Source of the DNA: a virus
Lineage: Duplodnaviria > Heunggongvirae > Uroviricota > Caudoviricetes
DNA: 64,000 nt
Direction: 5' to 3' (one strand)
IMG/VR virus record: IMGVR_UViG_2851938318_000001
A program made the translations under genes and the position numbers. Positions 5,338 through 64,000 of this stretch are shown here, piece after piece. The first letter of the stretch is position 1; each line of letters starts with the position of its first letter. The notes beneath the pieces are model-generated. The model was not told the DNA's origin. It did not search any database and saw nothing but the letters and a program-made list of their open reading frames with translations.

Positions 5338-5444
5338 CTGGTAGGTAGTTACTTACTTATCACAATGAGCGGATGATAGCGACTGGTGGCAGTTTTTGGA
5401 AGTGGAAACGGAAGGGAGTTGTTCTGGTGGTGTCTTTTAAAAGA

Positions 5445-5499
5445 CCTGCTTCCGTATATATTTAATAAGTTACTTATTATTTATATATACAGAAGCAGG
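5445..5499. repeat. 55-bp near-perfect palindrome, copy 1 of 2
   Basis: cctgcttccgtatatatttaataagttacttattatttatatatacagaagcagg; arms contain CTGTATATAT-like half sites; centre carries the TAAGTTACTTATT motif. Confidence 0.8.
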
Positions 5500-5610
5500 C
5501 ATAACTTGTCGTCTTAGACGCCCAGAAGCTCTACACTTTGAGCCTGTTAAATTGATTAAAAACTTATGTGTAAAATAGAACGCATTAGTCAGTAGCTAAG
5601 AGATGCAATA

Positions 5611-6378
5611 ATGGACGATTTATCGGTATACGCGAGATCATTGGATAAGGCTAAATACTATGTTTACTGTCTCTATGATACAGAAGACAAGATGAAAAGA
5701 CCGTTTTACATAGGAAAAGGCAAATCGACTCGTTGTCTCGATCACATCAAGTATCCCGATGACTCTCCCAAATCCATGCGGATCAAAGAACTTTTGGCTA
5801 ATAAAAAATTAGGCATAGATATTCTTCGTCATGGTATGGATGAAACCACAGCCAAACTTGTTGAGGCGACATGCATCGACCTTATGGGGGTCGGAGAGCT
5901 TACGAATAAGGTACGAGGAAGTGGTTCCATGATGGGCAGAATATCACTGGACGCCTACCATCACTTAGTGCTGCAAGAGGAAACTGAAATTGCTCCTGAG
6001 CACGCCGGTCTTGCCTTCCTGCTAAACAGCACCTACAAGTCAGGAATGTCCGCTCTGGCATTATATGAAGCTACGCGTGGCGTATGGGCAAAGGTTCCAA
6101 GAGACGAGAATCTCAAATATGCCTACGCTACATATGGTGGGCTAATAATGGAAGTTTATCAGATTGAATGCTGGGTCAAAGCCGGTTCTCAGCAGTACTT
6201 TACAAGGGATATAGCTCTTGGCCCCGACACAAAACGTTATGAATTTGTTGGCAGAATAGCCGATGAGCATATTAGAAAACTGTATGTAGGCAAATTAATC
6301 AAGAAGCCACCAAGCTACGGTAGCCCTTTTGTGAAGGTTGGGGTGGTTAGGACTGAACATAGTGTTAGCGCGGCATAA
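5611..6378 (+). CDS. GIY-YIG domain nuclease, possible free-standing homing endonuclease
   Basis: 255 aa; N-terminus YVYCLYD...FYIGKGKSTRCLDH fits the GIY-(10-13)-YIG...R...H pattern; lone plus-strand gene between replication and partition modules. Confidence 0.55.
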   Translation: MDDLSVYARSLDKAKYYVYCLYDTEDKMKRPFYIGKGKSTRCLDHIKYPDDSPKSMRIKELLANKKLGIDILRHGMDETTAKLVEATCIDLMGVGELTNKVRGSGSMMGRISLDAYHHLVLQEETEIAPEHAGLAFLLNSTYKSGMSALALYEATRGVWAKVPRDENLKYAYATYGGLIMEVYQIECWVKAGSQQYFTRDIALGPDTKRYEFVGRIADEHIRKLYVGKLIKKPPSYGSPFVKVGVVRTEHSVSAA

Positions 6379-6430
6379 AGCTGACACTGTAGTTATGCAT
6401 TGGCGCAATGTACGCGCCAATGCATGATTT

Positions 6431-6790
6431 TTAACCTTTCTTCATCAACTCTCGTTTGATTTCATCGGTACGCATCGTGACATCGGCAGCGGTGATCGCC
6501 TCATTCAATTTCACGATGTCCTCGATTTCCTGCGGTGACTTCTCTGCCAGATGGAAAATGGCTGCTCGAATCACGTCAGAACGAGTGAACTTCTCGAAGC
6601 GAGGGATGAACTTCATCATCTCCAGCAGTTCGAAGTATTCGTCCTCCAGTGACATTGTGCGGCTTTTAATTTTCTCTTTGCCACGAGTCGGGCGTCCCTG
6701 TGGTCTGACTGGTTGGCGCAAAGGAGTTGTGTTCTTAGCCGGTGCATCAGGCTCTTTGCGCTTTGCTAGGTCACCCATTTTCATGGACAT
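6431..6790 (-). CDS. small centromere-binding partner of ParA (ribbon-helix-helix, ParG-like)
   Basis: 119 aa; basic N-terminal tail then a beta-strand/helix pattern (TMSLEDEYFELLEMM...RSDVIRAAIFHL); start overlaps the parA stop. Confidence 0.5.
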   Translation of the reverse strand: MSMKMGDLAKRKEPDAPAKNTTPLRQPVRPQGRPTRGKEKIKSRTMSLEDEYFELLEMMKFIPRFEKFTRSDVIRAAIFHLAEKSPQEIEDIVKLNEAITAADVTMRTDEIKRELMKKG

Positions 6791-9359: not shown

Positions 9360-9366
9360 TTTACTC

Positions 9367-10308: not shown

Positions 10309-10309
10309 A

Positions 10310-11029
10310 TTAGACCATCCCTTTCTGGTGTTTTCTTACCTGCGACCAGGCAATGAATCCTGCCACAACAATAGTGGCAATACCGAAGATAATGCGTACT
10401 GTATCCCCGCTAGAGATATGACCTTGTGCTTTATCCATAGCAGCGGAAACCTGCGGCATAACATCGGCCAGCTGCGCCAGACCAATACCTGCTGTAACAG
10501 TTGCGCCTGCGGTTTCTTTAGTTACAGGAACAGCCTTCACGGTTTTCACCGGCTTAACAACGCCAGCTCGACGCAGACCTTCCTCAATAACTTCTGCCGC
10601 ATACCAGGTGTTCAGCGTTTTTAGCGGGCCTCGGCCATTCTCGTGGCGAATGATTGCCTCAACCAAAGGTCGAAGGATGTCGTAATCATGCAGATCGATG
10701 ATCATGTCTGCGGTTACACCAACGGCTTTAGACACCTCATTAATGTAGGCGTCAGTATTGTTTTCATTCGGCGGTGCCCAGCGTTCAATAACTTCACGAA
10801 TGGTATCGATACTTGTGCCGTCTTTTGCGCGACGTTTATCGTGGTAGGTAATTAGAGTCACCGCCAGCGCACGAATCCCCCAAACAGGGTCTTTAAACGT
10901 GCAAAAGCGCGGTTCGTCTGGATTCGCAACCAGACCTTGCCACGGTGATCCTTTATCAAGATTACCGGGGTTATTATTACGAATGCCTCTCGGAGTCTTC
11001 ATCCTTGATCTCCTGTTATTGCAGTCCAC
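10310..11029 (-). CDS. candidate endolysin or lysis-module protein with C-terminal membrane anchor
   Basis: 239 aa; conserved-looking N-terminal GIRNNNPGNL...W segment; C-terminal TM helix IIFGIATIVVAGFIAW; sits between holin-like and spanin-like genes. Confidence 0.35.
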   Translation of the reverse strand: MDCNNRRSRMKTPRGIRNNNPGNLDKGSPWQGLVANPDEPRFCTFKDPVWGIRALAVTLITYHDKRRAKDGTSIDTIREVIERWAPPNENNTDAYINEVSKAVGVTADMIIDLHDYDILRPLVEAIIRHENGRGPLKTLNTWYAAEVIEEGLRRAGVVKPVKTVKAVPVTKETAGATVTAGIGLAQLADVMPQVSAAMDKAQGHISSGDTVRIIFGIATIVVAGFIAWSQVRKHQKGMV

Positions 11030-11351
11030 TTTTTACGCCATACGCGGCTAACCCCAAAAGCAGTGCGGTAATAATGAACGACGTTATTTTAGAAACAATG
11101 CCGCCAAAGAACCCACTTGAGATGGAATCTAACCGGTTAAGGAGTTTGTCCAGATTGGAGTGTTGAATACTATGTTGCGCCGGGGTCATATCACCAAAGT
11201 AGGTTTTCAGCTGATCATTGACCTCCTGGCCAATTTCTTCACGTAGCTCTTTACCTAATTTGCCAACAACCTCCCGAGCAACGATCGCGGCAATACGCTC
11301 AACTTGCTCTGTTGTAACGCCCGCCATCTCGTTCGACATGTTTTCCTCCAT
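11016..11351 (-). CDS. holin-like small membrane protein
   Basis: 111 aa; one C-terminal TM helix ITSFIITALLLGLAAYGV; first gene of the lysis-like cassette. Confidence 0.35.
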   Translation of the reverse strand: MEENMSNEMAGVTTEQVERIAAIVAREVVGKLGKELREEIGQEVNDQLKTYFGDMTPAQHSIQHSNLDKLLNRLDSISSGFFGGIVSKITSFIITALLLGLAAYGVKSGLQ

Positions 11352-11541
11352 GAAAAGTCAAATCGGGATGGCGGATTTATATCACACTTCCCCTTTCAAT
11401 TATAGGTATATACTTACCTACCTATGCATATACCGTTTAACGGCTGTTCAAATTCGTATCTAGTAACTCACTAATATATCCCTATGATTGCGGCTGTGAG
11501 ATCGCATTTTAAACCTCACAGCCATATAAATAATGTCTAAA

Positions 11542-14500
11542 TCAGTTACTTGTTGCCCCAACAGTACCTGCAAATTTCAGCCATTGACCTGACGGACTTC
11601 TATTACTACGGTAGTGATAAACGAGGATTGCGTTTGTAATCCCACCATAGTCAGCTTTGTGTGACGTCGTTAAACGAATTGTATAATCACCGTTAGGTAG
11701 ATTAAAAACTTCGATTATAGATTCTGCTAATTCTACAGCACCAAATCCCGTTATATTGTTGATACTGCCAGCATTGAATCCCATAGCATCGCCAAAGCCA
11801 ATCCAATAACTTTTGCTAAACGCCCCATTTGATTTTAGGTGGCTAATGAATGCGGACAAGCTCATGCCCATATCCCCACCTGAAACAGAGGAAGTTCGCA
11901 CAGTCATGCTTGGAAGAGCACTGCTCTTCACATAGGAACTTAGAAGGTTTGTTACCTCTGTTTTCGTGTAAGCATTAACATTAGCCGCAGTCAAAGTTAT
12001 ATCGGCAGAGCCATCAAACGCCACACCAGCAATTTTCCTTGCTGTCTGCAATTTTGTGGCGGTTGCGGCATTACCAGTAGTGTTCTGGTTCCCATCTGCA
12101 TTCACACCTGGGATGCTGTCTTTTTTAGTATATATCTGAGTCCAGTCCTCTTCGAACCCATAGCCATCACGTGATGAACGGTAATACAATCCACCATTTT
12201 TATAATGCGCTCGGATTTGGAGAGTCCGACAACTACCTACGCCTGTATAAAAATTTGCAACGATATAAGAATCCCCGGAGCGTGTAACATTATACGCACC
12301 TGATTCGGCATTCCACGGGACCGCACCACTAGTATCGGCATAAGTTCCAGTAGCGCGTCGAGCAAAAGCAGATACATTTGCAGCTGTTAGTGTTATATCA
12401 GCAGAACCATCAAAAGACACGCCGCTTATTTTTCTAGCAGTTTGCAACTTCGTAGCTGTTGAAGCATTACCGTTCAAGCTGCCATTTACGCCACCAGTAA
12501 CATTTAGTCCATTACCAATGGACACAGCACCGCTGGTATTGTTAATTGTAATCGGTCGCAAACCGTTCCATGAACCTAATGTGTCTCCTGATGCTGTTAG
12601 CATGAAATATGTGTTCGACCCATCATTACGGATAAAGAACCCAAAGCTACCGTAAGCAATGCGGAAACCATTTGCATATTTTGAAATGATCTCGCCAGAA
12701 GATGTCAAACCTCCAGATAATGTCCCACCGGTAAGAGGTAATGCACCAACGTCAGATGCTGTTGGTTTATTTTTCGTGTTATATACTCTTCGCCATCCTG
12801 GAGAATAATCTGTGCCATTAAATACATAGATAAACTCCGCATTAGTGAGAGCACCAGAGACACTCGTCGTTGTGGCCGTTGTTATACGGATCGTATAATT
12901 GTTTGAGCTACTACCGTTATTAAATACCTCTATAACAGCTCCTGCCAATGGAATAACGCCACAACCAGTTTCACTATTTGGTATGGTTGCACTATTGGCA
13001 TAGGCCCACGCACATCGAGCAATCCATGACTTTGTGTTAAATGCTCCATTATTTTGCAATAACGTCACTAACTGTGCTGTTGTTATTGCTCCGCCATTAC
13101 TTCCTGTAGTTAACCAACCAGTAGGAGATGCCGGGCAACCTATATTTGCTGGCGATAAGGAAATATTTGCCGAGCCGTCAAACGACACCCCATTAATAGT
13201 ACGCGCAGTCTGCAACTTCGTAGCAGTAGCCGCGTTGCCCGTTGTATTCTGATTACCAGTCGTATTAACACCTGGCAAATTAATATTCGCAGTACCATCA
13301 AAGCTCACGCCGCCGATAGTTCTTGCCGTCTGAAGTTTTGTAGCAGTTGCAGCATTACCAGTGGTGTTCTGATTACCCGTAGTATTTACACCTGGAAGGT
13401 TGATATTTGCAGAACCGTCGAAACCAACTCCACCGATAGATCTTGCCGTCTGCAATTTCGTTGCTGTACTTGCATTACCATTTAATGTTCCGGTGATCCC
13501 ACCAGTAACAGACAACGGACCTGAAACTGTTCCTCCGGTTGTTGGCAGTGCACCAATATCTAACGGCGTCGGTTTCTGATGTGTGCTATACATCGTATAA
13601 ACAACACCATCGGTAACGCTGGAAGGCTTACTCGCTGAATATGTTGGCGATGTATAAATAGAAACTGTCGCATTTGCAGTACAATCCCAATGGATATTTA
13701 CACTCGTCGCATAATTGCCAATCTCAACGTAAATATCATATGTATCGCCGGATGTGTTGATCCAGGCGAAATTCGTTAATCCGACAGCTGTACGCTTCCA
13801 CAAAGCCCCGGTAATTCCTTTGGGGTTTCCATTGCCTGCTCGTAGAACCAGTTCTGAAATGCCTGCCTGATGTGGGGAACCGACGTTGTAACCAGCGCCA
13901 CCAATCAATGCGATGTAAACGATGGAACTCGCTTGTGGCATGGTAACCGTAGCCAGTTTGAACCACCCAGCCCCGCCAGAGAAAGACATCGTTACTGAAT
14001 TTAAAGTACCAATATCTTTCGGCGTTAATGTTATATCCGCAGTCAATGCTTTTCCGTTAACTTTTCGGTTAGATGGCACCCTGCTATTCGCATTGTCATT
14101 GGCTGCTTTAACTGCTTTTGGCGTTGCGGCCAGCGATTCACTGGTGCTGTCGACAGCACTGCTAAGTTTCACAACACCTTTGGTGGTAAGGCTTGCGTCT
14201 TCCATCGCAACTGCACCGGCAATCTCTTCAGCACGATCAGCGGCAGCTTCCGCACGGGTCGCAGCGGATTCAGCAGCAGTTTTGCTCTGAGATGCAGCTG
14301 TCGCACTGCCTGCCGCCTCTGTTGCCTTCGTGGATGCCGTTGAAGCACTGCTCTTCGCTGCTGATGCCTGCTTGGTCGCCTCATCTTTTGAAGCGGATGC
14401 TGAGGTGGCTGATGCAGACGCAGAACTTGCAGATTCAGCAGCTGCCGCCTTAGAGGAAGCAGCATTGTCTTCTGAGGTCTTTGCATTTGTTTCAGAGGTT

Positions 14501-15567
14501 TTTGCTGCCGATGCTGAATTTTTAGCAGCTGTAGCCTGACTCGTCGCCTCTGTCGCTTTTGTGGTAGCTGTTGTCGCGGATGACAATGCGCTATCCGCAG
14601 ATTTTCCTGCCGCTGTTGCACTTGATGAAGCACTATCCGCACTTGCTGAGGCTGCACTTGCTGACGCTTCTGCCACAGATTTCGAACTGTTTGCAGACGA
14701 TGCACTCTGTTCGGCTGCCGTTTCAGATGCTTTTGCGTTTGTCTCTGACGTTTTTGCTGCCTTAGAGGAATTTGCAGCTTCTGTTGCCGATGATGCAGCC
14801 GCGTTTGCACTCGATGAAGCGTTAGTCTCTGATGCTTTGGCTGCATCCTTAGATGCAGAGGCACTGGACGCAGATATTGCAGCCTCCGATGCTTTGGTCG
14901 ATGCTACAGACGCTGATTCTGCTGCCGCTTCTTTGGCGGCCTCTGCGTTCGTTTCAGATCTTTTCGCAGCAGTTGCACTCGCACTTGCAGCACTTTGTGA
15001 GGATGCCGCAGCGGATGCACTTTGAGACGCTTGAGATGCTTTTTCTCCAGCGGTATTGGCGCTTTCTGCCGCTGCGGCAGCACTGGCCGCCGCCTCACGA
15101 GCTTTGTCGCCAGCAGCATCAATCGCGTCAGTGTTATTTTTATACCACTCAACGTTTTCGTTGTGCTCGTTGACGATCTGCATTAGCGGCTTAACGGTCA
15201 CTTCTGTACCGTCTTCACGCTCGATTGTCACCTCATCCAGAGCAGTCAACCAACTGCGCATGGACTTTGAATCAGCCGACATACGCGACATTAGTGCAGT
15301 AAAGCGCGCGCTAAACTGTGTTAAGTCGCCTTCATAGGTCGTAATGATTCGGCACGGAACTTCAGACTGAGTTTCGCCGGTATAAGGTTCTGAGAGAACA
15401 ATGTTCGTATCACTGGTTACGCGCTTGATCTCATACAGCTTGTTGTCGGGGCCAATGACGATCATCCCCGGCAACACACCATTAGCTGTTACGTTCCAGG
15501 CTGTTCCAACACCAACGAGAGTATTGCTACCCTGTGTAAATGTGATAGTACCTTCCCTGTACCACAT
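11542..15567 (-). CDS. side tail fiber protein
   Basis: 1341 aa; long Ala/Ser-rich low-complexity region; three tandem tail-fiber repeats GNAATATKLQTARxIGGVSFDGxANINLPGVNTTGNQNTT. Confidence 0.75.
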   Translation of the reverse strand: MWYREGTITFTQGSNTLVGVGTAWNVTANGVLPGMIVIGPDNKLYEIKRVTSDTNIVLSEPYTGETQSEVPCRIITTYEGDLTQFSARFTALMSRMSADSKSMRSWLTALDEVTIEREDGTEVTVKPLMQIVNEHNENVEWYKNNTDAIDAAGDKAREAAASAAAAAESANTAGEKASQASQSASAAASSQSAASASATAAKRSETNAEAAKEAAAESASVASTKASEAAISASSASASKDAAKASETNASSSANAAASSATEAANSSKAAKTSETNAKASETAAEQSASSANSSKSVAEASASAASASADSASSSATAAGKSADSALSSATTATTKATEATSQATAAKNSASAAKTSETNAKTSEDNAASSKAAAAESASSASASATSASASKDEATKQASAAKSSASTASTKATEAAGSATAASQSKTAAESAATRAEAAADRAEEIAGAVAMEDASLTTKGVVKLSSAVDSTSESLAATPKAVKAANDNANSRVPSNRKVNGKALTADITLTPKDIGTLNSVTMSFSGGAGWFKLATVTMPQASSIVYIALIGGAGYNVGSPHQAGISELVLRAGNGNPKGITGALWKRTAVGLTNFAWINTSGDTYDIYVEIGNYATSVNIHWDCTANATVSIYTSPTYSASKPSSVTDGVVYTMYSTHQKPTPLDIGALPTTGGTVSGPLSVTGGITGTLNGNASTATKLQTARSIGGVGFDGSANINLPGVNTTGNQNTTGNAATATKLQTARTIGGVSFDGTANINLPGVNTTGNQNTTGNAATATKLQTARTINGVSFDGSANISLSPANIGCPASPTGWLTTGSNGGAITTAQLVTLLQNNGAFNTKSWIARCAWAYANSATIPNSETGCGVIPLAGAVIEVFNNGSSSNNYTIRITTATTTSVSGALTNAEFIYVFNGTDYSPGWRRVYNTKNKPTASDVGALPLTGGTLSGGLTSSGEIISKYANGFRIAYGSFGFFIRNDGSNTYFMLTASGDTLGSWNGLRPITINNTSGAVSIGNGLNVTGGVNGSLNGNASTATKLQTARKISGVSFDGSADITLTAANVSAFARRATGTYADTSGAVPWNAESGAYNVTRSGDSYIVANFYTGVGSCRTLQIRAHYKNGGLYYRSSRDGYGFEEDWTQIYTKKDSIPGVNADGNQNTTGNAATATKLQTARKIAGVAFDGSADITLTAANVNAYTKTEVTNLLSSYVKSSALPSMTVRTSSVSGGDMGMSLSAFISHLKSNGAFSKSYWIGFGDAMGFNAGSINNITGFGAVELAESIIEVFNLPNGDYTIRLTTSHKADYGGITNAILVYHYRSNRSPSGQWLKFAGTVGATSN

Positions 15568-15660
15568 GTTGAATATGCTCCTTGATTTGGTGGGCTATCC
15601 TTGCCCACCATAAAGTAAGTACCTACTTATTTTTACCGATGTAAATATTTTTTTCTACTA

Positions 15661-18600
15661 TCACAGAAGGCCAATTCTCACTCGGAGGACGTTGTTATCG
15701 TCATAAACGTCAATCCGCTGACCATTTATGACCAATCGCCCATTGCCGCCGCTATTACCGTTAATCTCAAGCGTTCCATTTTTGCCGAACCGCCATCCAG
15801 ATCTACCGCTAACAAAATTGGTAGATTGCAGATCGCCTACTTTTGCATTGGTGATTGTGCCATCCTTGATATACGCACCATTCATATAGGCGATACTGTT
15901 TTCGATAACAAATGGCGTGGTGATCTTCCCGTTAACAGAGTTGACCAAACCAAATCTGTCCGCCTGCACCAAAAACTGAGAAAGACCGGTGGTGTCGATA
16001 CCAAGCGCAATACCGGCAACATACTTCTGCCCTCCGCTCGTTGAAGTCTCCATTTTCAACGTCCACGCGGTTGAGACTTTTTTGTTGGTATCAGCAATGG
16101 CTGTTGCCTGCTGTTGAATTGTCGCGGTATTTCCATCCACCTCTGCTTTCAGAGTATCGATTCGCCCACTTAGAGCATTATCTGCCTGCGTTCTCGCTGT
16201 CGTTTCAGTTGTGACCGCCGCAGAAATGTTGGCTGCTGTTTGAGACTCTAAGTTTGTGATTTGAGTCGCCAGTGCCGCATCTTGCTCTGTACGCGTTTTC
16301 GTTTCGGTTGCTACAGCCGCTTTAATATCCTCTTTGTATTGAGAGGTCAGCTTGGTGATCTGAGATGACAACGCCGAGTCAGCATCAGTTCGAGCCTGCG
16401 TTTCAACTGCAACGGCCGCACTAATATCTTTCGCAGTCTGTGCTTTTAAACTTGAAACCTCTTTTGTTAAAGCGGTATCACCATCTGCACGAGCCGTTGT
16501 TTCTCTGGCAAGAGATGCCTCGAGATCATTAGCTTTTGCTGTAAGAGACGTAATCTGAGTGGACAATGCACTATCGGCATCAGTCCTTGCCTTTGTCTCT
16601 ACAGCAACCGCTGCGGCAATGTCAGTTCCGGTCTGCGCCCGCAGGATGTTAATTTCTCGTGAGAGCGCCTCGTCAGCACTTGCTCTAGCCTCCTGCTCCT
16701 GAGTGATGGCGGCGGATATATCACCGTCAACCTTTGCTTGAAGCTGGTTTATTTGTTTGGCTAAGGCAGAGTCCCCGCTTGCTCGAGCCTCCTGCTCACT
16801 ACGTATTGCAGCAGAAATATCATCATCAACCTTTGCCTGAAGTTGGGTGATCTGGCTTGCCAGAGCCGAATCTTCCGTTGCTCGGGCTTCTTGCTCCTCC
16901 TTAATAGCTGCGACGATATCGTTGCTTACTTTCGACTCAAGCTGAGTGATCTGTGTCGTCAGAGCTTCATCGGCAGATGTACGAGCCTCCTGCTCTGTAC
17001 TAATCGCCGCGCTGATATCTCCTTCAAACTTAGATTGCAGCTGAGTGACACGCTTTGCCAACGCTTCATCGCCATCGGCACGAGCGGTGGACTCTTCCAG
17101 AATACTGGCCTTAATGTCTTCGCCAATTTCTACGCGAATTTCCTCAACCTTCGTGGCCATTGCAGACATATCATCAGCAAAGGTTTTCTGTGTTGTTGCG
17201 ATCTTCGCGTTATTGACCATCTGCTTGTGCTGGTCTTCATCTTGACGAAGAGCCAGGTCAATGTTTGTTTTGGCCAACGCCTCAATGTTCGTAGTCAGCT
17301 CTGCACTTGCACGATCGACCTCTGCAACCGTCTTTTTCATTTCTTCAACGGCAGCGGAGCTTTCCTCTACCGTTGACTGCAACACTTCCAGTTGTTTAGC
17401 GTTTGCAGCATCGCCTTCAACACGAGCCTCGCTTTCCTTAGCAATAAGAGCCGCCGCTTCATCTCTTGCAGCCTTTATTGCCTCGACTGTATTAGCGAGA
17501 GCTTTATCGTGTTCAGATACGGCGTTTTCGATTTCAACAATTGCAGCATCAGTAGCATCAATTTTTTCAAACGCTTCATTGACCTTGTCGATCGTTGCCG
17601 AAACCTCACCTTTAAGCTCGGTTTGTGCGTTCTCCAAAGCATCGCTACGCTCGTTGAATTTTATTTCAAAATCCGCGAGGTTATCGCTGAACTGCTTATC
17701 TAATTCAGCTATATCTTCCTTAACGTCGTTTACCGCCCCCTCCAAAGATTCGACGCTCTGGTTGATATGCTCATTTAACTCGTCAACTGCTTCTTGAGAG
17801 GCTTTGCTGTTGATGTCCTCAAGCAGAGCCTGACCAAGCTCGGAAGATGTAATTTTGCCAGTCAGGAACGACAGTACATCGCGAGTTGTCGCCTCTGTAC
17901 CCAAGTTTGAGTTCGGAGGACTTAACATACCTCGCTTGTTCGATGCTCGAACCCAGTAATACCACGTTTCACTATCCCCAAGACCAGCATGTGTAAAGGT
18001 GGTGCTTGCAGACTCTGCGATCAGTTTCGCCGTATCCAGATTGTTGGTCTGGGATGCGTAAACATTAATGTGATCAAGGTCTACCGAATCTGGATTAACC
18101 CAATTCAGTATCACATTACGATAGTCTCCAACGGCCGTTAATGACGTTGGTGCATCCGGCGGTGTCATTGTGCCCAGCACCTGATAAACGGTACTGATAA
18201 TTTCTGTTTTTTTACCGTTGAATGAAACCGCATACAGTTGGAAGTCGTAGCGTCCATTCTCCGCGACATTAACGATTTCGTATTGCTCTTCGGTTACACG
18301 CGCCGATTGCCAGTTCGATACATTGTTTTCATCAGAACGTCGCCAACTGATCCAATACTCTGGAGATTTCCCTTCCCATGTTGCAGTCAGTTTTACTGAC
18401 AGGTTGCCCGGGCTTGAGAGATAAGTCCCTTCAGTGATTTGCAGATTAGATGGCTTGGAGTAAGTTGGGTCCAATACCGTCGTATTCTGCGGGATCAGCG
18501 TTGCACCATTGTCGATTGCCTCATATTTAGACGGATTGTTCTCAACAGCGGTGATGTCAAAGCTACCCGGCGTTTCCCCCTGCGCGATGTTAACGATGCG

Positions 18601-23820: not shown

Positions 23821-23869
23821 CCTGTCAGCGCCACAATGATAGTAAATTAGTACTTACTTATCCAGATGC

Positions 23870-30284: not shown

Positions 30285-30358
30285 TGATGGAAAACTCCTT
30301 TTTCCGTTAATTCTACGCATTCATTGCGCTAATGGTAAGTATATACTTACCTATTGAC

Positions 30359-33864: not shown

Positions 33865-33937
33865 TTCTCGCTCCTACAAAAAGGGTGGGCGTATAGCCCA
33901 CCCTTTAACATAGATAATTACTTATCTACTGCACTGA

Positions 33938-35747: not shown

Positions 35748-37322
35748 TCACTCGTTCTCTTGAGTAGATGAGTCCCCATTCCCTCGGGGTTGATCTTGCC
35801 CGCTTTCTTGGGCCGCGCCTTGATCATAAGTAAGTACTGACTTATTTTCAAGGGTATTTAGATCATTTTTTGGCGGAAAATTCAAGAGATCTTTATCAAA
35901 TTCCTTCTTCATCGCCTCAGTGATGTTCGGGAAAATCTTCTCAATAAGCATTTCCATCTGGTGACGACGTACAGAGTCCGGTGCCTGGAGTAATGACAGT
36001 TTCTCGGCAACAGAAAATTCATCAGTAAGGCCACGAATATCAAAACTTTCTGGATACGCAATTAAAGAGTGGTCTTCGTCCAGATCTACCCCCATCCATT
36101 TCGCAACCAGTAGCATGATTTGGCGTTCAGCCCTTTCCAGACGCTCTGCTTTTGTGACAAGCAAGCTATTTACACGCTGGAAGTCATACATTTTTGCGGC
36201 ACCAGATGAGTTATCGATTCCCTGTGCGTTGTCCTGCTTCGTTCGCTCACCAGCTACACCAACTGAATGGTAGATTTCGTTAATCACCGTCTTAATCGTA
36301 GTGATGATCATCTGAGCTTGTTTCGGGTCTGGTGACAGATAAAACGGCTGGTTTCCACCTTCAGAATCGTAGGTGAAGACTCGCTTTGTGCCCATTTCAA
36401 GCACTTTAGTGTGGTTTTCATCACCAGGTAAAAGCGACTGTACCGGTATAGCCAACTGGCTAAATGTCTGATCCTGAATAATGGCATCAAGGTTTGACAG
36501 ATAGTTTGCAACCGCACGATCAAGATAAGCGATATCATCGATCAACGATGGGCTGAAATACGGTGATTCGCTTTCTCCAATACAATCAACAGGAAACACA
36601 GGAACTACGCCGAGATTATGCGCACCGCTATCCTCTAAAATAACTTTTGCCTGACGGCGACCTGCTCCACCAGCGCCCTTCTTCACTTCCTCACGGAACA
36701 GATACCACTCGTTTTGTGTCCACAGACGATAACGTTGGTATTCCTGACCTGTAGAAGTAAAAGGATCTGCGTCATCACGAGCGACTTCCACAATTAACGC
36801 CCACAACATATTCCCGTCGTCGTCCCATGCCACATCCAGCATTTGCTGAGGTGAAATCCAGTAGGCGTAGGCGCGAGCATCTTTCTTTTTCTCGTCAGCT
36901 ACTGACTCAACATCACCACTCATCGTGCTATCGACAACAACCCATATGCGACCGTAAATAGACGACTGCAAATCAATAGCGGCCATAAATGAGTCAATAG
37001 AGGCATTCTGGCGGGTCGCACGTTTCCAGAAATTGCGGATCTGCTCTGGTGCCTCTTCGATATTTCTATGAATGTCTTCTTTAAAGAGATATTTGTTGAT
37101 GAGGTTTACCACCTCACGAGTGTGGTTGAAGCGATAAGCACGCTCAACTCGCTCCTTAAACTCCTGATCTCCCTCTTTAAAGTAACGAAAGATATTGTCT
37201 GTAAACCAACCACGCCCGCCAGCGTAAGTGCTGGCGAGGAAGTCCCAATGTTCTTTTTTCTTTTCGTATTCCGGGTGGCGTCGCGCCACCAGATCCTTAA
37301 TTTGTTTGTCGTTCAATTCCAT
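35748..37322 (-). CDS. portal protein
   Basis: 524 aa; position immediately downstream of the terminase large subunit. Confidence 0.65.
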   Translation of the reverse strand: MELNDKQIKDLVARRHPEYEKKKEHWDFLASTYAGGRGWFTDNIFRYFKEGDQEFKERVERAYRFNHTREVVNLINKYLFKEDIHRNIEEAPEQIRNFWKRATRQNASIDSFMAAIDLQSSIYGRIWVVVDSTMSGDVESVADEKKKDARAYAYWISPQQMLDVAWDDDGNMLWALIVEVARDDADPFTSTGQEYQRYRLWTQNEWYLFREEVKKGAGGAGRRQAKVILEDSGAHNLGVVPVFPVDCIGESESPYFSPSLIDDIAYLDRAVANYLSNLDAIIQDQTFSQLAIPVQSLLPGDENHTKVLEMGTKRVFTYDSEGGNQPFYLSPDPKQAQMIITTIKTVINEIYHSVGVAGERTKQDNAQGIDNSSGAAKMYDFQRVNSLLVTKAERLERAERQIMLLVAKWMGVDLDEDHSLIAYPESFDIRGLTDEFSVAEKLSLLQAPDSVRRHQMEMLIEKIFPNITEAMKKEFDKDLLNFPPKNDLNTLENKSVLTYDQGAAQESGQDQPRGNGDSSTQENE

Positions 37323-37348
37323 TTGAATAACCTTAGATAATTACTTAC

Positions 37349-38605
37349 CTATCGAGAACCACCAAGAATAACACGGTTTTTGACTGGATACCTACGATGT
37401 ACTGGATAGCCCAATGCGTCTGCACTATGCTCAATGCCACCTGTCTTATCCATATCTCGTGTTCCAGGCTTGTAGATGACCTTTTCCAGTGAATCAATCA
37501 AATGCTTGCACTTCGGATCGATATACAGCCGGATATCTCCAGATGCGGTCATCAGCATTCGGTTAACAGCATTAACACGATCCGCAATTGGCGGGTGCTT
37601 TTTCGAATAATCGACACGTAAGAATCCCTTCTCTTTGAATATGTCTACGTCAGACTCCCCGCGAGCATGTTGGCGATAAGCACCTGCCGGATCTGGAAAT
37701 ACCGTTATCTGTGATTTCCAGCGCCAGAAGCGCCTCTCAAGCTCATCACAAACCTCTGCCGTGTTAGAGGAAAAGAGCACCAATTCATCAATTGCCCATA
37801 GCTCACCATTTGGCTGAGGTTGCAAAATTACGGAAGACATCGGGTCAATGTTGAAGTCCTGTCCTACCCATATAGGCAACCGAGGGTTGAACTGAAGCGG
37901 TTTAACATGCACGTTTCGATCGAACGGGTAGTAAACGCGCCCGGACATATTTTCAAAGCTGGCCAGGTACTCCTGAGCGAACGATTTAGGGTCCATATCG
38001 TTCTTAGCAGCTTCAATTTCCGCCGTAGGCACAAACGGCGAATCAGCAGTTACAAACTGCCAGCTCTTCCACTGTCCCTTTCTTTGCAGCTCTACGTTCT
38101 GGCCTATAGTCCACAGTTTGTGAAATTCCGAGAAGCCTTTTGGCGTACCAATAATCAGTGCACCGCCGCGTGTCGATGAAAGAGTAGGTCGTAACACCTT
38201 GTACCAGGTGTCAGCCTTCATATCCTGAAATTCATCAAGCACTACAAAATGCAACGCTACGCCGCGCAGAGTGTCAGGTTTATCAGCTCCTTTGAGGGCG
38301 ATCTCCGAACCGTTCTTCAACACGATTGTCATCGTGGTGTCGTTCTTTTTCCTAACCCACTTACGGGGCAGAACTTCCTGTAGATCGTCCCACAAAATCT
38401 GGCGAGCCATCTGGTAAGTAGGAGCGACATACCAGACCCTTTGCTTTTTTTCCTTTGCCGCCGCACGAATAATAGTGGAGATCGACAACCGGGATTTTCC
38501 CCAGCGTCGACCAGCACAAACAACTTTAAATCGATGCGGAGACTGGAAGACTTTCATCTGTCCAGAATGCAGTTGCACAAGACTGAGCGAGGACGGGATT
38601 GCCAT
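37349..38605 (-). CDS. terminase large subunit
   Basis: 418 aa; Walker A-like GRRWGKS, Walker B-like FVVLDEFQD; start overlaps the small-subunit stop. Confidence 0.8.
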   Translation of the reverse strand: MAIPSSLSLVQLHSGQMKVFQSPHRFKVVCAGRRWGKSRLSISTIIRAAAKEKKQRVWYVAPTYQMARQILWDDLQEVLPRKWVRKKNDTTMTIVLKNGSEIALKGADKPDTLRGVALHFVVLDEFQDMKADTWYKVLRPTLSSTRGGALIIGTPKGFSEFHKLWTIGQNVELQRKGQWKSWQFVTADSPFVPTAEIEAAKNDMDPKSFAQEYLASFENMSGRVYYPFDRNVHVKPLQFNPRLPIWVGQDFNIDPMSSVILQPQPNGELWAIDELVLFSSNTAEVCDELERRFWRWKSQITVFPDPAGAYRQHARGESDVDIFKEKGFLRVDYSKKHPPIADRVNAVNRMLMTASGDIRLYIDPKCKHLIDSLEKVIYKPGTRDMDKTGGIEHSADALGYPVHRRYPVKNRVILGGSR

Positions 38606-39411: not shown

Positions 39412-39435
39412 TCTTTAAATAACGTCCCAGACCGA

Positions 39436-39702
39436 TTACATCACCAGTAACTTCGCTTTGGCTCGACCTAAAGTGGTTAACCCAAGAGTCCGGCGGTGAT
39501 AGCGATTGTCACTGCGTTGGCGCGTATGCCCTTTCTCCACCAGCCCCTTTTTTATCAGAGCGCGAATTGAGAACTGGATACTTTGCTTTGTTGTCTTGTA
39601 CGGCAAAACTTCAAGCAATTCGTCCAGATCAAGTAGATGACCTCGCTCATAACCGAGATTGAGCGTTTTGATGATGTCCTTTTGTTTGTCGGTTAACGTC
39701 AT
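39436..39702 (-). CDS. small winged-helix DNA-binding protein
   Basis: 88 aa, basic; last gene of the ParB/ATPase operon. Confidence 0.4.
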   Translation of the reverse strand: MTLTDKQKDIIKTLNLGYERGHLLDLDELLEVLPYKTTKQSIQFSIRALIKKGLVEKGHTRQRSDNRYHRRTLGLTTLGRAKAKLLVM

Positions 39703-40602: not shown

Positions 40603-41264
40603 GAATGGACCTCATCATAACTACCATTGTGATATTCCACCTTCACGCGTTCTTTGTAGTGCTTGGTGATCTGCATATCCGGGCGCAGCGCGTTCTTCAG
40701 GTCTTCGTGAGTCGTCGCCACCATTACCGTCGCACCAACCTTTCGAGCGGCACGCTGGAGGTTAGATGCCACAACCTGAGCGGTTACACGGTCTAGAACA
40801 GCACCGAACTCGTCAGCAGCCCACACTTTAGCGCCTGACTCAATCAGTTTGGCAATCTTGAGACGATATTTCTGACCGTCTGACATTTCAGAAGGCTTGC
40901 GAACAAACAGATATGCATCGTTCAGACCAGCCATAGATAACAACCCAAGCGCATCGCTGGTCGTTTTGCCCAACTGATCGATGACGTTAACCTCATTATC
41001 GAAGGTAAAATCATCGATGGAGGCTACAGACAGCCCTTCATCCTTCATCTGGCGTTGCAGCTCGCGCAACACAACGGATTTACCTGAACCGGATTGGCCG
41101 GTGATGTACACCACATCGCCCTGCTTCACTTCCAGCTCCAGATTGTCGTAAAGCGTCCACTCTTTTTCGTCCAGGCCAAGCCCGAACGACTCAGCGATTT
41201 CCAACGTGCGCGTGGTTTTATTTACGCGTGTCTGAAACGATACGTTGATGATGTATTTACTCAT
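40599..41264 (-). CDS. ABC-type P-loop ATPase (stand-alone)
   Basis: 221 aa; Walker A GQSGSGKS, signature-like MSDGQKYRL, Walker B VWAADEF, H-loop TTHE. Confidence 0.65.
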   Translation of the reverse strand: MSKYIINVSFQTRVNKTTRTLEIAESFGLGLDEKEWTLYDNLELEVKQGDVVYITGQSGSGKSVVLRELQRQMKDEGLSVASIDDFTFDNEVNVIDQLGKTTSDALGLLSMAGLNDAYLFVRKPSEMSDGQKYRLKIAKLIESGAKVWAADEFGAVLDRVTAQVVASNLQRAARKVGATVMVATTHEDLKNALRPDMQITKHYKERVKVEYHNGSYDEVHS

Positions 41265-41929
41265 GCAGCCATCTCCCCGGAAGAGATCTTCTCCGCATAT
41301 GCCACAAATGCGTCTACCCCGCTTTCTCCCGTCATTTCTTCCATATGGGCAAGCAAATCACCAACAACAATGGCAGAGCCAGCAGGGAGCGTTTTAAAGC
41401 CCAATACGTCGACAACACGTACTTCTTCCGCTGCAACTTCACGACTGATCTCGGTGTGTTCATCCTTCTGTCGTTTAGTTTCTTCGCCAAGATCGATAAC
41501 TAGCGAGTCGGTGTCCATTTCTTCTGTCATACTGCCAACGAGAACATTCAACTCACGCTCTTCAAAGCCGAAAACCTCGATATCGTCCAGAACAAGCGAC
41601 TCAAGCTCTTTCTGTAGCTTAATTGCATCGTAATCAATGCTGGCAAGTCGGTTATCTTCAAGGCGCTTCGCACGAACCTCGTCATCACTGAGATCATCGC
41701 GAACAATAACCGGTACGCGCTCAAGTCCAGCAAAAATTGCAGCCTCACGGCGGCCGTGGCCAGTAATAATTACGTCGTTCTTATCGACCGTAATTGGCTG
41801 GTCAAATCCGCGCTTTTTAATGGCTGCGGCCAGATCTCGGATCTGCTGTTCATCATGCTTTTTGGCATTCATCTCATAGGGAATAAGATCTGCCGGGTCG
41901 CGATATACGATTTCAAACTTTTTGGTCAT
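41261..41929 (-). CDS. ParB/Srx-domain protein 1
   Basis: ParB box-II-like ITGHGRREAAIFAG; start taken at Met 41929, sharing one nt with the upstream stop. Confidence 0.65.
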   Translation of the reverse strand: MTKKFEIVYRDPADLIPYEMNAKKHDEQQIRDLAAAIKKRGFDQPITVDKNDVIITGHGRREAAIFAGLERVPVIVRDDLSDDEVRAKRLEDNRLASIDYDAIKLQKELESLVLDDIEVFGFEERELNVLVGSMTEEMDTDSLVIDLGEETKRQKDEHTEISREVAAEEVRVVDVLGFKTLPAGSAIVVGDLLAHMEEMTGESGVDAFVAYAEKISSGEMAA

Positions 41930-42627
41930 TACATACGCTCCTTGTAGTAGTCGACCAGCCACACCAGAGCCTCACCAGCGTTCTCCATTTCATTACCGGT
42001 GTTAATAGCCTGCTCTTTGATGATGTTTTTTATGGTTTCTGCAACACGATCTGACGCATCGAAAGTTACTTTGAAGCGCATGGTCTGATGTTCCGCCCCC
42101 ACACGTTCGGTTTTCTCTCGTTTGTCGGTATCGACAGGCTCATCACTACCACGAGACAACGCCTCCAGTGCTTCAAGGTCGATTGCCGCCTCTTTTGCTA
42201 AAACCATCGAGATTTCGTCGTCATACGGGGCGATTTCAGACAGTTGATAGTCAAGTTCTGACTGAATTTCTTCAATGAAGCGTTGCAATGCGATTTGGTC
42301 GTCTTCACCGTATCGCTCGTTGTCCACCAGTGACATCTGTTTAGCTACGACATCGCTAATTTTGCCCACAGAAAGCACCGGAACCGTTGAAATTCCTTGC
42401 TCAATAGCAGCACGCCAGCGATGTTCGCCGCCGAGGATTTCAAAAAATCCATCTTCAAGTTCACGAGCCAAAATTGGCTTAAAAAAGCCCAATTTTTCGA
42501 TAGAACCTTTCAGTTTTTCAAAATTCTGCGCACCAACCGAATTGGTGTTCCAGGTATTCGGGCGAAGGTTGGCAACATCAACCTGCAAAATCGTGATTTT
42601 TACATCCATTTTATTGCTACAATCCAC
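41929..42627 (-). CDS. ParB/Srx-domain protein 2
   Basis: 232 aa; ParB box-II-like ILGGEHRWRAAIEQGI; first gene of the operon; phage palindromic motif at 42627..42648. Confidence 0.65.
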   Translation of the reverse strand: MDCSNKMDVKITILQVDVANLRPNTWNTNSVGAQNFEKLKGSIEKLGFFKPILARELEDGFFEILGGEHRWRAAIEQGISTVPVLSVGKISDVVAKQMSLVDNERYGEDDQIALQRFIEEIQSELDYQLSEIAPYDDEISMVLAKEAAIDLEALEALSRGSDEPVDTDKREKTERVGAEHQTMRFKVTFDASDRVAETIKNIIKEQAINTGNEMENAGEALVWLVDYYKERM

Positions 42628-42691
42628 TAAGTAATTACTTACTTATTATAATAGCCAAATAACATACAAAAGGCACTAAGGAAAGAGGTTT

Positions 42692-44532: not shown

Positions 44533-44597
44533 CATTTCATATTTACCCCCTATCTACTAAATCTATGATGTGCTCACTTGTTAGAAAGGAGCACATC

Positions 44598-51239: not shown

Positions 51240-51365
51240 TTCACTCTCCGTAGTGTATTGGTTATTTTTCTATTTTATAGTCGTAGGTATGTACTTACAA
51301 TACAAAAAAGCCCCGTAAGGATGGCGGGGCTGTCGTACTGTCGACTAATTACCACTTGCACATTA

Positions 51366-59608: not shown

Positions 59609-59616
59609 ACTATTGC

Positions 59617-61722: not shown

Positions 61723-62263
61723 AATGCTGACCCTCTTTGGTGAAAACGCCTGATGCAATACTGTTTATGATGCTGTCAGTACAGGGAGTAGAAAGCTGGG
61801 CATCTCCAGCTATTTTCATGACTTCGACATTCGCATATCGAATACCGAGGTGTATCAGACCTGCTATACCTGACTTAAGTCGAACATTTTCCATAAACAG
61901 ATCCTTTTCCCGCTGTTTAACGGTCTCCAGCTCAACACGCAGTTTCTCAAGCGTTAGGGCCATCTCTACGTTCTCCTGCTCAAGACGTCGGATGTGTTGC
62001 TGTCTTTTATCCAGTTCGTCCAGCAGTGCAATCACATCGGGATCACTATCATCAACTACTGTTACGCGTGATTTTTCATAATGTTCGTCTGCAAAAGTAC
62101 GCCCTATCTTAAAATATCCGTCATCACTCTCACCGGAACAGGCATAAACAACATGTGCTCCAGATATGCGCTGTATTGACATTTCCTCGCCACAAACAGA
62201 GCATTTAGGCGCTGGTTTTGGTGAATAACGTTCACGTAACGTCAGGTAGTAAATCTCATTCAC
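61697..62263 (-). CDS. coiled-coil prophage early-region protein (Ead/Ea22-like)
   Basis: 188 aa; CxxC near N-terminus and a long heptad-like coiled coil. Confidence 0.4.
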   Translation of the reverse strand: MNEIYYLTLRERYSPKPAPKCSVCGEEMSIQRISGAHVVYACSGESDDGYFKIGRTFADEHYEKSRVTVVDDSDPDVIALLDELDKRQQHIRRLEQENVEMALTLEKLRVELETVKQREKDLFMENVRLKSGIAGLIHLGIRYANVEVMKIAGDAQLSTPCTDSIINSIASGVFTKEGQHYENSRSSR

Positions 62264-62715
62264 TGTTTATTTCCTGTACGAAGCTCAGCGGCAAAAGCTA
62301 CTGCGTGATCATGATGTTCAAGTGTGTATGCGCACTCAGCAAACATCTCCACGCCCTGCGCACGTACTTCAGCCAGAAAAGCATCGGTGGCTGGAGTCTC
62401 CGTTAATTCGCTAACCCAATTATCTCCGTGTTCCTCGGCACACATCGCATCGAATGCTCGCTCAGATTCTTTCAGGGCTGCATTCTCCGCCGCTAATGCG
62501 TCTCTCTGCGCCCGCAACTTCTCAATTTCAGCAGCCATGTAGTAACCAACCATAGCGAAGACGGCAAAAGAGTTGTCTGCCTCATCAGGCGACACTGAGG
62601 CCATTAGCAGGCCATCGTAAAAATCGTGACTCCCATTGGTGATCGCCACCGCATAGGAGTCGTGGTTCTCGCGCTTGTGAATGAGAACTACGGGATTTTC
62701 GATTTTGTTACTCAT
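62260..62715 (-). CDS. coiled-coil prophage early-region protein (Ead/Ea22-like)
   Basis: 151 aa; central coiled coil EIEKLRAQRDALAAENAALKE. Confidence 0.4.
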   Translation of the reverse strand: MSNKIENPVVLIHKRENHDSYAVAITNGSHDFYDGLLMASVSPDEADNSFAVFAMVGYYMAAEIEKLRAQRDALAAENAALKESERAFDAMCAEEHGDNWVSELTETPATDAFLAEVRAQGVEMFAECAYTLEHHDHAVAFAAELRTGNKQ

Positions 62716-62853
62716 GTGTTTTTCTCTTCTTTGCTGTTACATAAGCACTACCAAGTGCTGGTTTATTTTCACAAATAAGAAAAGGTAGAAAACAATTTAT
62801 TTAAGGCCATAAGTTATGGCCTTTATTTATTCATGCAGAAGGATTTGTAGCGC

Positions 62854-63234
62854 CTAATTGCCGTATAAAATGGGTTGAGGTGCTTGCCAGTAAGCTCCAC
62901 CGTCCCATGTGAACCCCATGCGAATAAGAGTGTTTATTGCGGCTTTGGTAGACTCTGATTCGACGCTGACTTTTCGAAACTCTTGAACCTCTTTCGCCAA
63001 CTTGTATGTAATTGTGCAGGGGACGATTGCAGCCCAGCCTTTCTCATGACTGTTAATGACCATCTGGATGTGACCATCCAGAATAGGTTGATCAGGCATG
63101 TTATTGAAAACGTCTGCCTGTTTTTGAATGTGAAGAAAAAGCCTTGCCAGCTCCATTTGCTCACTACGAGACAAGGGATTATCAAGAGGGCTTTTTGCAA
63201 AAGCTGCTATACGCTGTGCATCAATGCCAAACAT
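62854..63234 (-). CDS. hypothetical prophage protein
   Basis: 126-aa ORF. Confidence 0.35.
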   Translation of the reverse strand: MFGIDAQRIAAFAKSPLDNPLSRSEQMELARLFLHIQKQADVFNNMPDQPILDGHIQMVINSHEKGWAAIVPCTITYKLAKEVQEFRKVSVESESTKAAINTLIRMGFTWDGGAYWQAPQPILYGN

Positions 63235-63938
63235 CAGCGCACCTCACCATCTTTATGGCTGGAGTTAACTTCCGTCATTAAATGTCTGACGTAATCGACA
63301 AGAGAGCCGCCTGGTGGAATCTGGCATTCCTCAACTAACTGGAAGTAGATATCCGCTGCATTACGTGTATTGCTACCCGCGCATATTCTTTCTTCCCGAA
63401 GTGCATGAAGCTCGTTGATCAAACGGTCACACTCTCCGTTACGCTGATCCACAACAGCCTCAAGTTCTGCGACGCGTTCACCTGGCGTCTTACCTTCTTT
63501 GCGTTGGATGGTAACGACGAAATCGCCAATTGCAGGGACGTTGTAATCCAGCTCAAGGTAGTTTTTGGCACCGCTGCGGACGAACTCACCCGCGAACATG
63601 GTGGCGAACATCGCAGAGGCCACTTCGCCGTTGAAAAGTGACTCCAGATCTAACGGAGTCCCGGCAGCAAGAGCCTCTTTTGCTGTATCCATTGCATCCA
63701 TGAACCGATCAAACTCACTAGCGCGCTTTTCCAGGTCTTTCCATTGCTCGCTCCAACGTTTGGCAACGAAGTCTATGAATGTTTTCGCGGATTCATCAAA
63801 ATTCCCCTCAAACTTAACGATGCCTTTATCAATAATGATCTGGCCTACCGCATCCTCTGCATAACCTTTCAATGTAAACTTGAAAGGAAAATCAGAATGG
63901 CCTGTGACGTTAAAATGCTCTAACTGGAGGTTGTTCAT
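63234..63938 (-). CDS. hypothetical prophage protein
   Basis: 234-aa ORF; phage palindromic motif taagtaagtatttacctat at 63982..64000 upstream. Confidence 0.4.
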   Translation of the reverse strand: MNNLQLEHFNVTGHSDFPFKFTLKGYAEDAVGQIIIDKGIVKFEGNFDESAKTFIDFVAKRWSEQWKDLEKRASEFDRFMDAMDTAKEALAAGTPLDLESLFNGEVASAMFATMFAGEFVRSGAKNYLELDYNVPAIGDFVVTIQRKEGKTPGERVAELEAVVDQRNGECDRLINELHALREERICAGSNTRNAADIYFQLVEECQIPPGGSLVDYVRHLMTEVNSSHKDGEVR

Positions 63939-64000
63939 GTGTTTTTCTCTTATCGTTTAGTTACTACATTCTTACACAAATTAAGTAAGTATTTACCTAT

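Follow-up and report, generated by a model that had tools for sequence, protein, structure and literature searches.

Introduction

The operators of the P1 repressor C1 are asymmetric 17-mers, C1 itself being a larger protein unrelated to the candidate considered below. In this plasmid prophage one repressor serves many operators spread over ~100 kb, which lie on the sigma-70 promoters of separate lytic units and of the repressor gene itself, and the P1 record annotates many C1 operators on promoters. In cluster A mycobacteriophages (L5 gp71), ~20-30 copies of an asymmetric 13-14-mer repressor site, oriented with transcription, are found in the short intergenic spaces of operons both early and late, in many cases over a stop codon; these stoperators were reportedly proposed, by Brown et al. 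in 1997, to block elongating polymerase. ParB, Noc, and KorB bind dispersed 13-16-bp palindromes, and at the KorB OB sites of RK2 (12 sites) and the Noc sites one dimer co-ordinates many promoters. A further P1 system comprises 11 late promoters, each with a 9-bp inverted repeat, AAGTNACTT, at -22 together with a -10 element (PMC10695390). Here we analyze an 18-bp palindrome that recurs upstream of genes in a 64,000-nucleotide stretch of viral DNA (IMG/VR record IMGVR_UViG_2851938318_000001), the whole of which is referred to below as the window.

By analogy, the palindrome appears to work like the P1 C1 network and the mycobacteriophage stoperators, while being a member of neither. We favor, with some reservation, its interpretation as the dispersed operator regulon of a dimeric prophage repressor, the most likely binder being an XRE-type helix-turn-helix protein of the kind encoded by CYRAN_45 of phage Cyrano. 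Whereas the late structural genes of P1 use separate Lpa-dependent promoters, here one palindrome precedes both DNA-metabolism and structural genes, and the candidate repressor is a small protein. As with the stoperators, copies of the palindrome overlap a stop codon (that of terL) and abut start codons. Unlike the stoperators, the site is a symmetric 18-mer whose better half may face either way, many of its copies coincide with promoter-like sequences, the host is Gram-negative, the prophage is a plasmid, and a roadblock function is putative.

A recurrent palindrome in an SSU5-like phage-plasmid

The window has a G+C content of 46.6%. Between 30 and 42 kb it shares 98% identity with Escherichia phage CMS-2020a (CP053388.1) and with the phage-plasmid that E. 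coli LF82 carries (pLF82, or Cyrano), and ~80% identity with Klebsiella phage-plasmids and Salmonella phage SSU5. On the basis of this nucleotide identity the window can therefore be assigned to an SSU5-like (SSU5/Cyrano-like) E. coli phage-plasmid, of which it represents two thirds, reading as the reverse complement of the Cyrano record. Gene names used here are taken from the annotated Cyrano and SSU5 records.

An initial annotation of the window had listed 11 copies of the palindrome; all are present, and a twelfth was found at 77-94 (Table 1). Aligned in the direction of the downstream gene, the 12 sites converge on one 18-bp palindrome of ~26 bits, centered between positions 9 and 10, which can be written TA(A/G)GTAAG-NN-CTTA(C/T)(C/T)TA for the window and takes the form TA(A/G)GTAAGTA-NN-TA(C/T)(C/T)TA in the enterobacterial elements and TAAGTAAG-NN-CTTACTTA across the family. 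Its frequency in the window is far above background. The pattern TACTTAYYTA matched 9 times against 0.37 expected, and TARGTAAGNNCTTACYTA with three or fewer mismatches matched 11 times against 0.49 expected, counts that were reached in 0 of 100 shuffles in either case; with symmetric scoring, 8 sites had at least 13 of 16 matches compared to 0.2 in Markov simulations. A similar density inside coding regions, which the initial annotation had named as grounds for abandoning a regulatory role, does not occur, and the coding sequence of the window holds no additional strong copy. Ten of the 12 18-mers lie wholly outside called open reading frames (ORFs), although non-coding DNA makes up 9.2% of the window (binomial tail for at least 9 of 12 non-coding, 8e-8).

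These ten are always just upstream of genes. Of the two copies that overlap coding sequence, one (37334-37351) includes the terL stop codon and the other (35827-35844) falls in the last 100 nucleotides (nt) of the portal gene. The portal copy is 100 nt upstream of its start codon, outside the 5-70 nt given in the initial annotation. The perfect palindrome placed at 42630 in the initial annotation, TAAGTAATTACTTA, starts at 42628. Strand assignments given there have little meaning, because the motif is palindromic; the better-conserved half-site faces the gene at most sites but not all. Preferences in the flanks are mirror-symmetric: position -1 favors a purine, -4 favors A, and +22 favors T.

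The proposal of a regulon extending across modules is supported, as copies precede genes for replication, nucleotide metabolism, DNA packaging, lysis, and the head and tail. With a weight matrix derived from the copies in the window, we detect ~21 strong copies in the whole Cyrano genome and ~24 in SSU5, where they also precede the gp32-like single-stranded DNA-binding protein, SbcCD, ribonucleotide reductase, ThyX, Dam methylase, RNase H-adjacent, and helicase/primase blocks. No description of the motif was found in the literature on SSU5, pHCM2, phage-plasmid promoters and operators, or the motif sequence itself.

Table 1. Copies of the palindrome in the window, with associated promoter and candidate DNA-binding genes (aa, amino acids).
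Feature	Position	Strand	Sequence	Context
s0	77..94	-	TAAGTAGATACATACTTA	42 nt upstream of minus-strand gene starting at ~34 and running off the window (CYRAN_34 / SSU5_042 homolog); identical 18-mer in SSU5 at 38179
s1	5342..5359			13 nt upstream of ATG 5328, first gene of helicase/primase block (CYRAN_31 homolog); Shine-Dalgarno AGGTGA abuts motif
s2	11403..11420			~51 nt upstream of holin gene (11016-11351, -); last two bases begin TATAAT hexamer; orthologous sites at Cyrano 26658 and SSU5 27475
s3	15612..15629			44 nt upstream of tail-fiber gene (11542-15567, -)
s4	23843..23860			22 nt upstream of minor tail protein L gene (start 23820, -)
s5	30336..30353		inside perfect 18-bp palindrome GGTAAGTATATACTTACC	51 nt upstream of major tail / Ig-domain tail gene (start ~30284, -)
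s6	33911..33928			between major capsid stop codon (33938) and intrinsic-terminator-like hairpin (33903-33887); 46 nt upstream of Ig-like protein gene (start 33864)
s7	35827..35844			100 nt upstream of scaffold-position gene (start 35726), within portal ORF 3' end; fills 17-bp promoter spacer
s7 promoter	35823..35851	-	TTGAAA-17-TATGAT	sigma-70-like, 10/12 matches, ties for top match count in 29-45 kb; same arrangement at Cyrano 3528 and SSU5 3545; downstream CYRAN_4 at background in lysogen
s8	37334..37351			terL/portal junction; motif TAG is the terL stop codon; portal ATG 11 nt downstream
s9	42628..42645			divergent region between uvsW (start 42692, +) and parB1 (ATG 42609, -)
s10	51284..51301		ATTGTAAGTACATACCTA (weaker)	directly after terminator-like hairpin; 44 nt upstream of gene 50844-51239 (CYRAN_107 homolog)
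s11	63982..63999			43 nt upstream of Ead/Ea22-like gene (63234-63938, -)
MarR-like winged-helix protein	39436..39702	-		88 aa, CYRAN_123; AlphaFold2 model, pLDDT 80; Foldseek match to MepR/MarR, TM 0.75
ParB1	41929..42609	-		paralog of ParB2; the two are the first genes of packaging operon, preceded by s9
ParB2	41261..41929	-		paralog of ParB1

Two long palindromes, at 5445-5499 and 39333-39433, lie upstream of the replication block and of terS, respectively, with arms of up to 50 nt that are 76-94% complementary. The initial annotation saw the same core at their centers; they carry a compressed version of the motif, ATAAGT-A-ACTTAT, and no 18-mer. The center (ATAAGTAACTTAT) is exactly equal to the consensus of the P1 late-promoter -22 box, AAGTNACTT. 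In high-GC relatives the long palindrome upstream of terS is centered on the full 18-mer. Possible functions of these structures include a pac or ori site, a cruciform, and a bidirectional terminator.

Conservation in distant relatives

An exact-pattern scan of viral contigs returned many SSU5-like contigs, along with contigs of little or no nucleotide similarity that also carry several copies each, at GC contents of 0.41-0.64. By tblastn the dissimilar contigs are distant members of the same family: they share TerL, portal, capsid, UvsW, ParB, Pol III alpha, CobS, and further proteins at 35-55% identity, with the gene order kept. In these distant relatives the family-wide form of the motif is nearly invariant, and it is found at the uvsW-parB and terL-portal junctions, before terS, around capsid and tail genes, and before tRNA genes. 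The terL-portal junction contains the motif in 8/8 lineages, and most of the few invariant columns of this junction fall within it; at the uvsW-parB junction 10-18 nt separate the motif from the start of parB1 in all lineages examined.

A second conserved word, CGCTATAAG, which resembles a -10 element, precedes many copies by 0-9 nt, on the side away from the gene, in five high-GC relatives (L108, L064, L046, L088, and L114). Its position suggests that in the high-GC clade this word and the motif form a composite promoter-operator unit.

In 596 Gb of genome contigs, exact TAAGTAAGNNCTTACTTA gave at least 120 single matches in unrelated bacteria, which is about the chance number, and among the matches listed one locus was SSU5-like. 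Because singletons occur at chance frequency, a single copy of the motif is not diagnostic. Pyrinomonadaceae and Blastocatellia (Acidobacteriota) were strikingly over-represented among the listed singletons. Separately, twelve members of an unrelated low-GC (~0.37) phage family carry one 18-mer copy each, situated ~100 nt before a gene for 231-238 aa and overlapping the end of an ORF of 88-90 aa. This copy may have arisen by chance and been fixed by descent, or the same operator word may have come into use independently.

Half-sites and the nature of the target

Covariation between the half-sites was assessed in 116 non-redundant sites. Positions 8 and 11 form a Watson-Crick pair in 47 sites compared to 58.6 expected under independence, and at pair 4/15 there were 17 single changes and 0 double changes. 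Pair 3/16 (A-T or G-C) is associated, weakly so within the enterobacterial group (p = 0.04). As changes in one half are not compensated in the other and the sequence is kept in each half, the motif is best understood as a site in duplex DNA; the pattern points to recognition by a symmetric protein dimer and away from an RNA hairpin. The motif also lacks the features of a terminator, as its stem is A/T-rich and is followed by no T run, and the terminator-like hairpins beside s6 and s10 are separate from it.

Promoters and start codons around the motif

Promoters and flanks were analyzed in 74 non-redundant sites oriented by their downstream genes. The best overlapping sigma-70-like promoter scored higher in the gene-ward than in the reverse direction (mean 7.67 versus 7.10, Wilcoxon p = 0.003), and sites with at least 9 of 12 promoter matches numbered 18 gene-ward and 5 in reverse, at a register that is not fixed. 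In the commonest register the -35 hexamer occupies positions -7..-2 and the -10 hexamer positions 17..22, the motif filling the 17-bp spacer. This is so at s7 and, in four to five distant lineages, at the promoter of the portal gene (TTGCAA-17-TACAAT, seen in the high-GC relatives, TTGTAA-17-TATCAT, and TTGCAA-17-TAATAT). In a second class the -10-like element is upstream, often as the second conserved word in high-GC relatives, and the motif covers the +1/start region. In a third class the motif directly adjoins a Shine-Dalgarno sequence, with the start codon 11-13 nt downstream, and in two relatives an ATG is found 0 and 2 nt after the motif; at such sites the motif must therefore be transcribed.

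At motif positions 17-22, TAnnnT is present in 8 of the 12 copies in the window and in 54% of the 74 sites, as expected of a -10 element formed in part by the motif. This preference is equally strong on the mirror side, where A is present at -4 in 58% of sites, and it is therefore part of the palindrome and not a directional -10 element. No directional -10 or -35 element was detected at a fixed register around the 74 sites. The suggestion that the motif is itself a phage-specific promoter is consequently not favored, given mirror-symmetric flanks, the lack of a direction-specific element at fixed register, and the transcription of several sites. The variable register, together with the occurrence of near-consensus promoters that would work unaided, favors a repressor over an activator.

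Expression in the lysogen

Expression of the target genes was taken from RNA-seq of the 98%-identical lysogen LF82, which carries Cyrano, where normalized counts are available for all Cyrano genes (supplementary S1 table of PMC9928086). The first gene after each strong motif, CYRAN_4 included, is silent, with 5-22 normalized counts where the prophage median is 9.8. Two genes are partial exceptions, namely CYRAN_34, at the weakest site (44), and uvsW, on the far side of s9 (46). CYRAN_45, annotated as a putative repressor, is expressed in the lysogen at 96. Other expressed prophage genes are toxin-antitoxin pairs, partition genes, repA, a UmuD-like gene, CYRAN_43, and CYRAN_117.

CYRAN_43, located outside the window (268-822, minus strand, of Cyrano locus L002), exceeds all other prophage genes in the lysogen by a wide margin, at ~7,000 normalized counts against the median of 9.8. 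It encodes a protein of 184 aa with no Pfam match and adjoins the integrase-repressor module. CYRAN_117 (window 44254-44532, plus strand), downstream of uvsW, encodes a 92-aa protein and ranks with the most strongly expressed genes of the lysogen, at 114 against 9.8. It is 67-99% identical within E. coli elements, and other clades have unrelated small proteins in its place, a pattern of variability that fits a diversifying immunity or exclusion function. CYRAN_117 was also considered as a ribbon-helix-helix binder of the motif and was rejected: it has only 17 homologs, 67-99% identical in E. coli, and is replaced in the high-GC clade, and such variability is a misfit with an invariant operator.

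A candidate repressor

CYRAN_45 encodes an XRE-type helix-turn-helix protein and adjoins the integrase gene, outside the window; in the phage to which the window belongs (CP053388.1) the gene of this type is at 16152-16535. A 14-bp core of the motif, GGTAAG-NN-CTTACC, directly follows a TTTACA-N16-TAATAT promoter, at its +1, 30-40 nt upstream of the CYRAN_45 start codon. This promoter and core precede every CYRAN_45 homolog retrieved from viral contigs (56-100% protein identity), although the surrounding sequence diverges. In the high-GC relative L046 a 20%-identical homolog occupies the equivalent place, upstream of cobT in an immunity-type region, and retains GYKNAN..S..KSG, a stretch of the predicted recognition helix (helix 3) that is invariant in the family; full copies of the motif flank it at 701, before a divergent 65-codon ORF, and at 1058. 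SSU5, which was isolated as a plaque-former, is without the repressor-integrase module and has kept the operators.

The operator of a dimeric regulator suggested by the initial annotation is thus supported by a palindrome with independently varying halves, its deep conservation and variable promoter register, the silence of its targets, and the presence of its core on a repressor promoter. Under the interpretation that we favor, ~20 copies per 108-kb genome would be placed on or just after the sigma-70-type promoters of lytic units and in tiny gaps within long operons. In the plasmid-prophage state, promoters with the motif in their -35/-10 spacer or over their +1 would be closed to RNA polymerase by a bound dimer, which at operon junctions that have no promoter might also act as a roadblock to read-through. 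One protein would in this way hold off the genes for replication, nucleotide metabolism, packaging, head, tail, and lysis, and it would limit its own synthesis via the weaker, core-only copy at +1 of its own promoter.

Several points weigh against this assignment. The proposed link between protein and site is drawn from gene context. The site on the repressor promoter is without the outer TA dinucleotides, and another protein could therefore act there. One repressor for both early and late genes would leave temporal control unexplained. Many sites have no recognizable -35 element (mean of 2.0/6 matches at the spacer register), as in activator-dependent promoters, and the density of sigma-70-like matches in the region is no higher than in shuffles, so only individual coincidences are informative. 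Three conserved DNA-binding candidates, ParB1, ParB2, and the MarR-like protein, are encoded right beside conserved copies of the motif. Lastly, a homolog of the repressor was found in one distant relative only, within the parts of those contigs that were searched.

Other candidate binders

The neighboring DNA-binding proteins could be the binders of the motif. In such a scheme the copies would be sites for ParB1/ParB2 or the MarR-like protein, used in the lytic cycle only and in the manner of KorB or Noc, for transcription feedback or for organizing DNA for packaging; we consider this unlikely, though with enough in its favor to be kept in mind. As autoregulation would predict, the motif stands 10-18 nt upstream of parB1 in every lineage, as a dispersed palindrome preceding a gene of the ParB family. 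ParB1 and ParB2 contain a CTP-type N-domain, ParB_N (Pfam), and a conserved C-terminal strand-helix-helix that resembles a ribbon-helix-helix module, with sequence matches in the PDB to Spo0J, ParB, and Noc. The AlphaFold2 model (pLDDT 88.5) matches ParB, Noc, and KorB in Foldseek, so that ParB1 is predicted to fold like these CTP-binding proteins; the C-terminal strand-helix-helix is seen in the monomer model only. Like the motif, the putative DNA-reading strands MRFKV and LGFKRV are kept as far as the high-GC clade. Palindromes of roughly 18 bp are a size that MarR dimers bind, and the MarR-like gene is present in all clades, high-GC relatives included, at a conserved position right before the long palindrome upstream of terS, which in those relatives is 18-mer-centered. 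A search for distant homologs of the MarR-like protein and ParB1 returned close relatives only, and the diversity of ParB1 was drawn from a search of representatives.

Against these candidates, the lysogen, in which the targets are silent, shows no more than background counts for parB1, parB2, and the MarR-like gene (5.0, 9.5, and 7.8). The three proteins therefore cannot silence near-consensus promoters such as that of s7 there, and could act in lytic growth only. Whereas KorB and Noc read DNA with a helix-turn-helix, no ParB-type helix-turn-helix was detected in ParB1 or ParB2, in which ParB_N was the only Pfam match. Nor would these proteins explain the conserved core on the promoter of the XRE repressor.

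The genes for these proteins belong to a conserved operon upstream of terS (39712-42609, minus strand) that encodes ParB1, ParB2, an ABC-type ATPase, an ATPase-acetyltransferase, and the MarR-like protein in the same order from E. coli to 60%-GC relatives. The ATPase-acetyltransferase fusion follows the Cyrano annotation, and its Pfam GNAT match is weak (E = 0.037). In the high-GC clade the operon has an extra 134-aa gene whose ATG abuts a copy of the motif. The operon could have a role in packaging, DNA modification, or regulation.

Another possibility, to which we give little credence, is an activator box like that of P1 Lpa. A phage dimer made after induction would bind the palindrome near -20 and recruit host RNA polymerase to promoters that have no -35 and whose -10-like TAnnnT begins with the TA that ends the motif. 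P1 shares several genes with this family, and its late-promoter box is built from the same AAGT/ACTT units as the motif. In both systems ~11-20 copies per genome of such an inverted repeat lie upstream of morphogenesis and lysis operons, beside a TAnnnT. A good -35 is missing at most sites, the silence of the targets in the lysogen would fit an absent activator equally well, and in two relatives tRNA genes follow the motif by 29-36 nt.

However, the P1 box is 9 bp long, stands at a fixed distance (4 bp) from a directional -10, and needs Lpa, whereas the site here is 18 bp long with symmetric flanks, among them the mirrored TAnnnT, and its register to the best promoter-like elements and to start codons varies over 0-130 nt. 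Where a Shine-Dalgarno sequence abuts the motif the ATG is at +11 to +13, and a start of transcription downstream of the motif would give a leaderless mRNA. Several sites lie inside near-consensus promoters with a 17-bp spacer, for which no activator is needed, and the core copy at +1 of the repressor promoter would need a separate explanation. A tblastn search for a homolog of P1 Lpa in the window and Cyrano gave a best E of 0.46 (ORF 44565-45164, CYRAN_116), and CYRAN_116 was rejected as such a homolog, since the gene is absent from SSU5, which keeps the motif.

It is also conceivable, but improbable, that the palindrome has a second role as a genome-wide insulator or roadblock, a symmetric Gram-negative counterpart of the stoperator, and that its sites are handed during the lytic cycle from the XRE repressor to ParB1/ParB2 or the MarR-like protein. 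If so, one DNA word, kept in a very broad family of phages and phage-plasmids with hosts of 41-64% GC, would serve for lysogenic silencing and later for late-gene control or packaging.

An RNA-level element, in which a transcribed hairpin would be a processing site, an mRNA stabilizer, or a translational operator near ribosome-binding sites, is highly improbable even though many copies must be transcribed, being within 0-20 nt of a start codon or Shine-Dalgarno sequence, and copies sit between the genes of long operons as T7 RNase III sites do: the covariation counts lead us to reject the hairpin reading, with no compensatory changes and with deviations in the two halves that are if anything anti-correlated, the stem of at most 8-9 A/U-rich bp with a 2-4 nt loop is too short for RNase III, sequence rather than pairing is kept across genomes of 41-64% GC, s9 serves divergent genes, and other copies precede tRNA genes.

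Additional features of the window

The minor tail protein L gene has a 1-nt deletion at ~23445 relative to Cyrano (736/741 bases identical), from which the overlapping ORFs 23323-23820 and 23090-23398 result; this may be either a real frameshift, in which case the phage would be tail-defective, or a sequencing error. At 46453-46974 on the plus strand the window encodes a 173-aa protein that matches Pfam Flag1_repress (FljA family, phase-1 flagellin repressor) at 5e-81. Judging from this match, its carriage on a phage-plasmid could alter host motility or antigenicity.

Conclusions

SSU5-like phage-plasmids, which include pHCM2, pLF82/Cyrano, and the pKpn-type elements of Klebsiella, occur widely among Enterobacteriaceae and bear resistance genes, and their lysis-lysogeny control is essentially uncharacterized. 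An 18-bp word found at nearly every lytic unit, taken together with a named candidate repressor, would provide a testable wiring diagram for these elements that predicts which promoters fire on induction. Immunity specificities normally diversify fast, and the conservation of this word across very different host base compositions would be unusual for a phage immunity system. The operator and its candidate repressor may offer a handle for curing or inducing SSU5-like elements, and the pair may also serve as a compact part for engineering.

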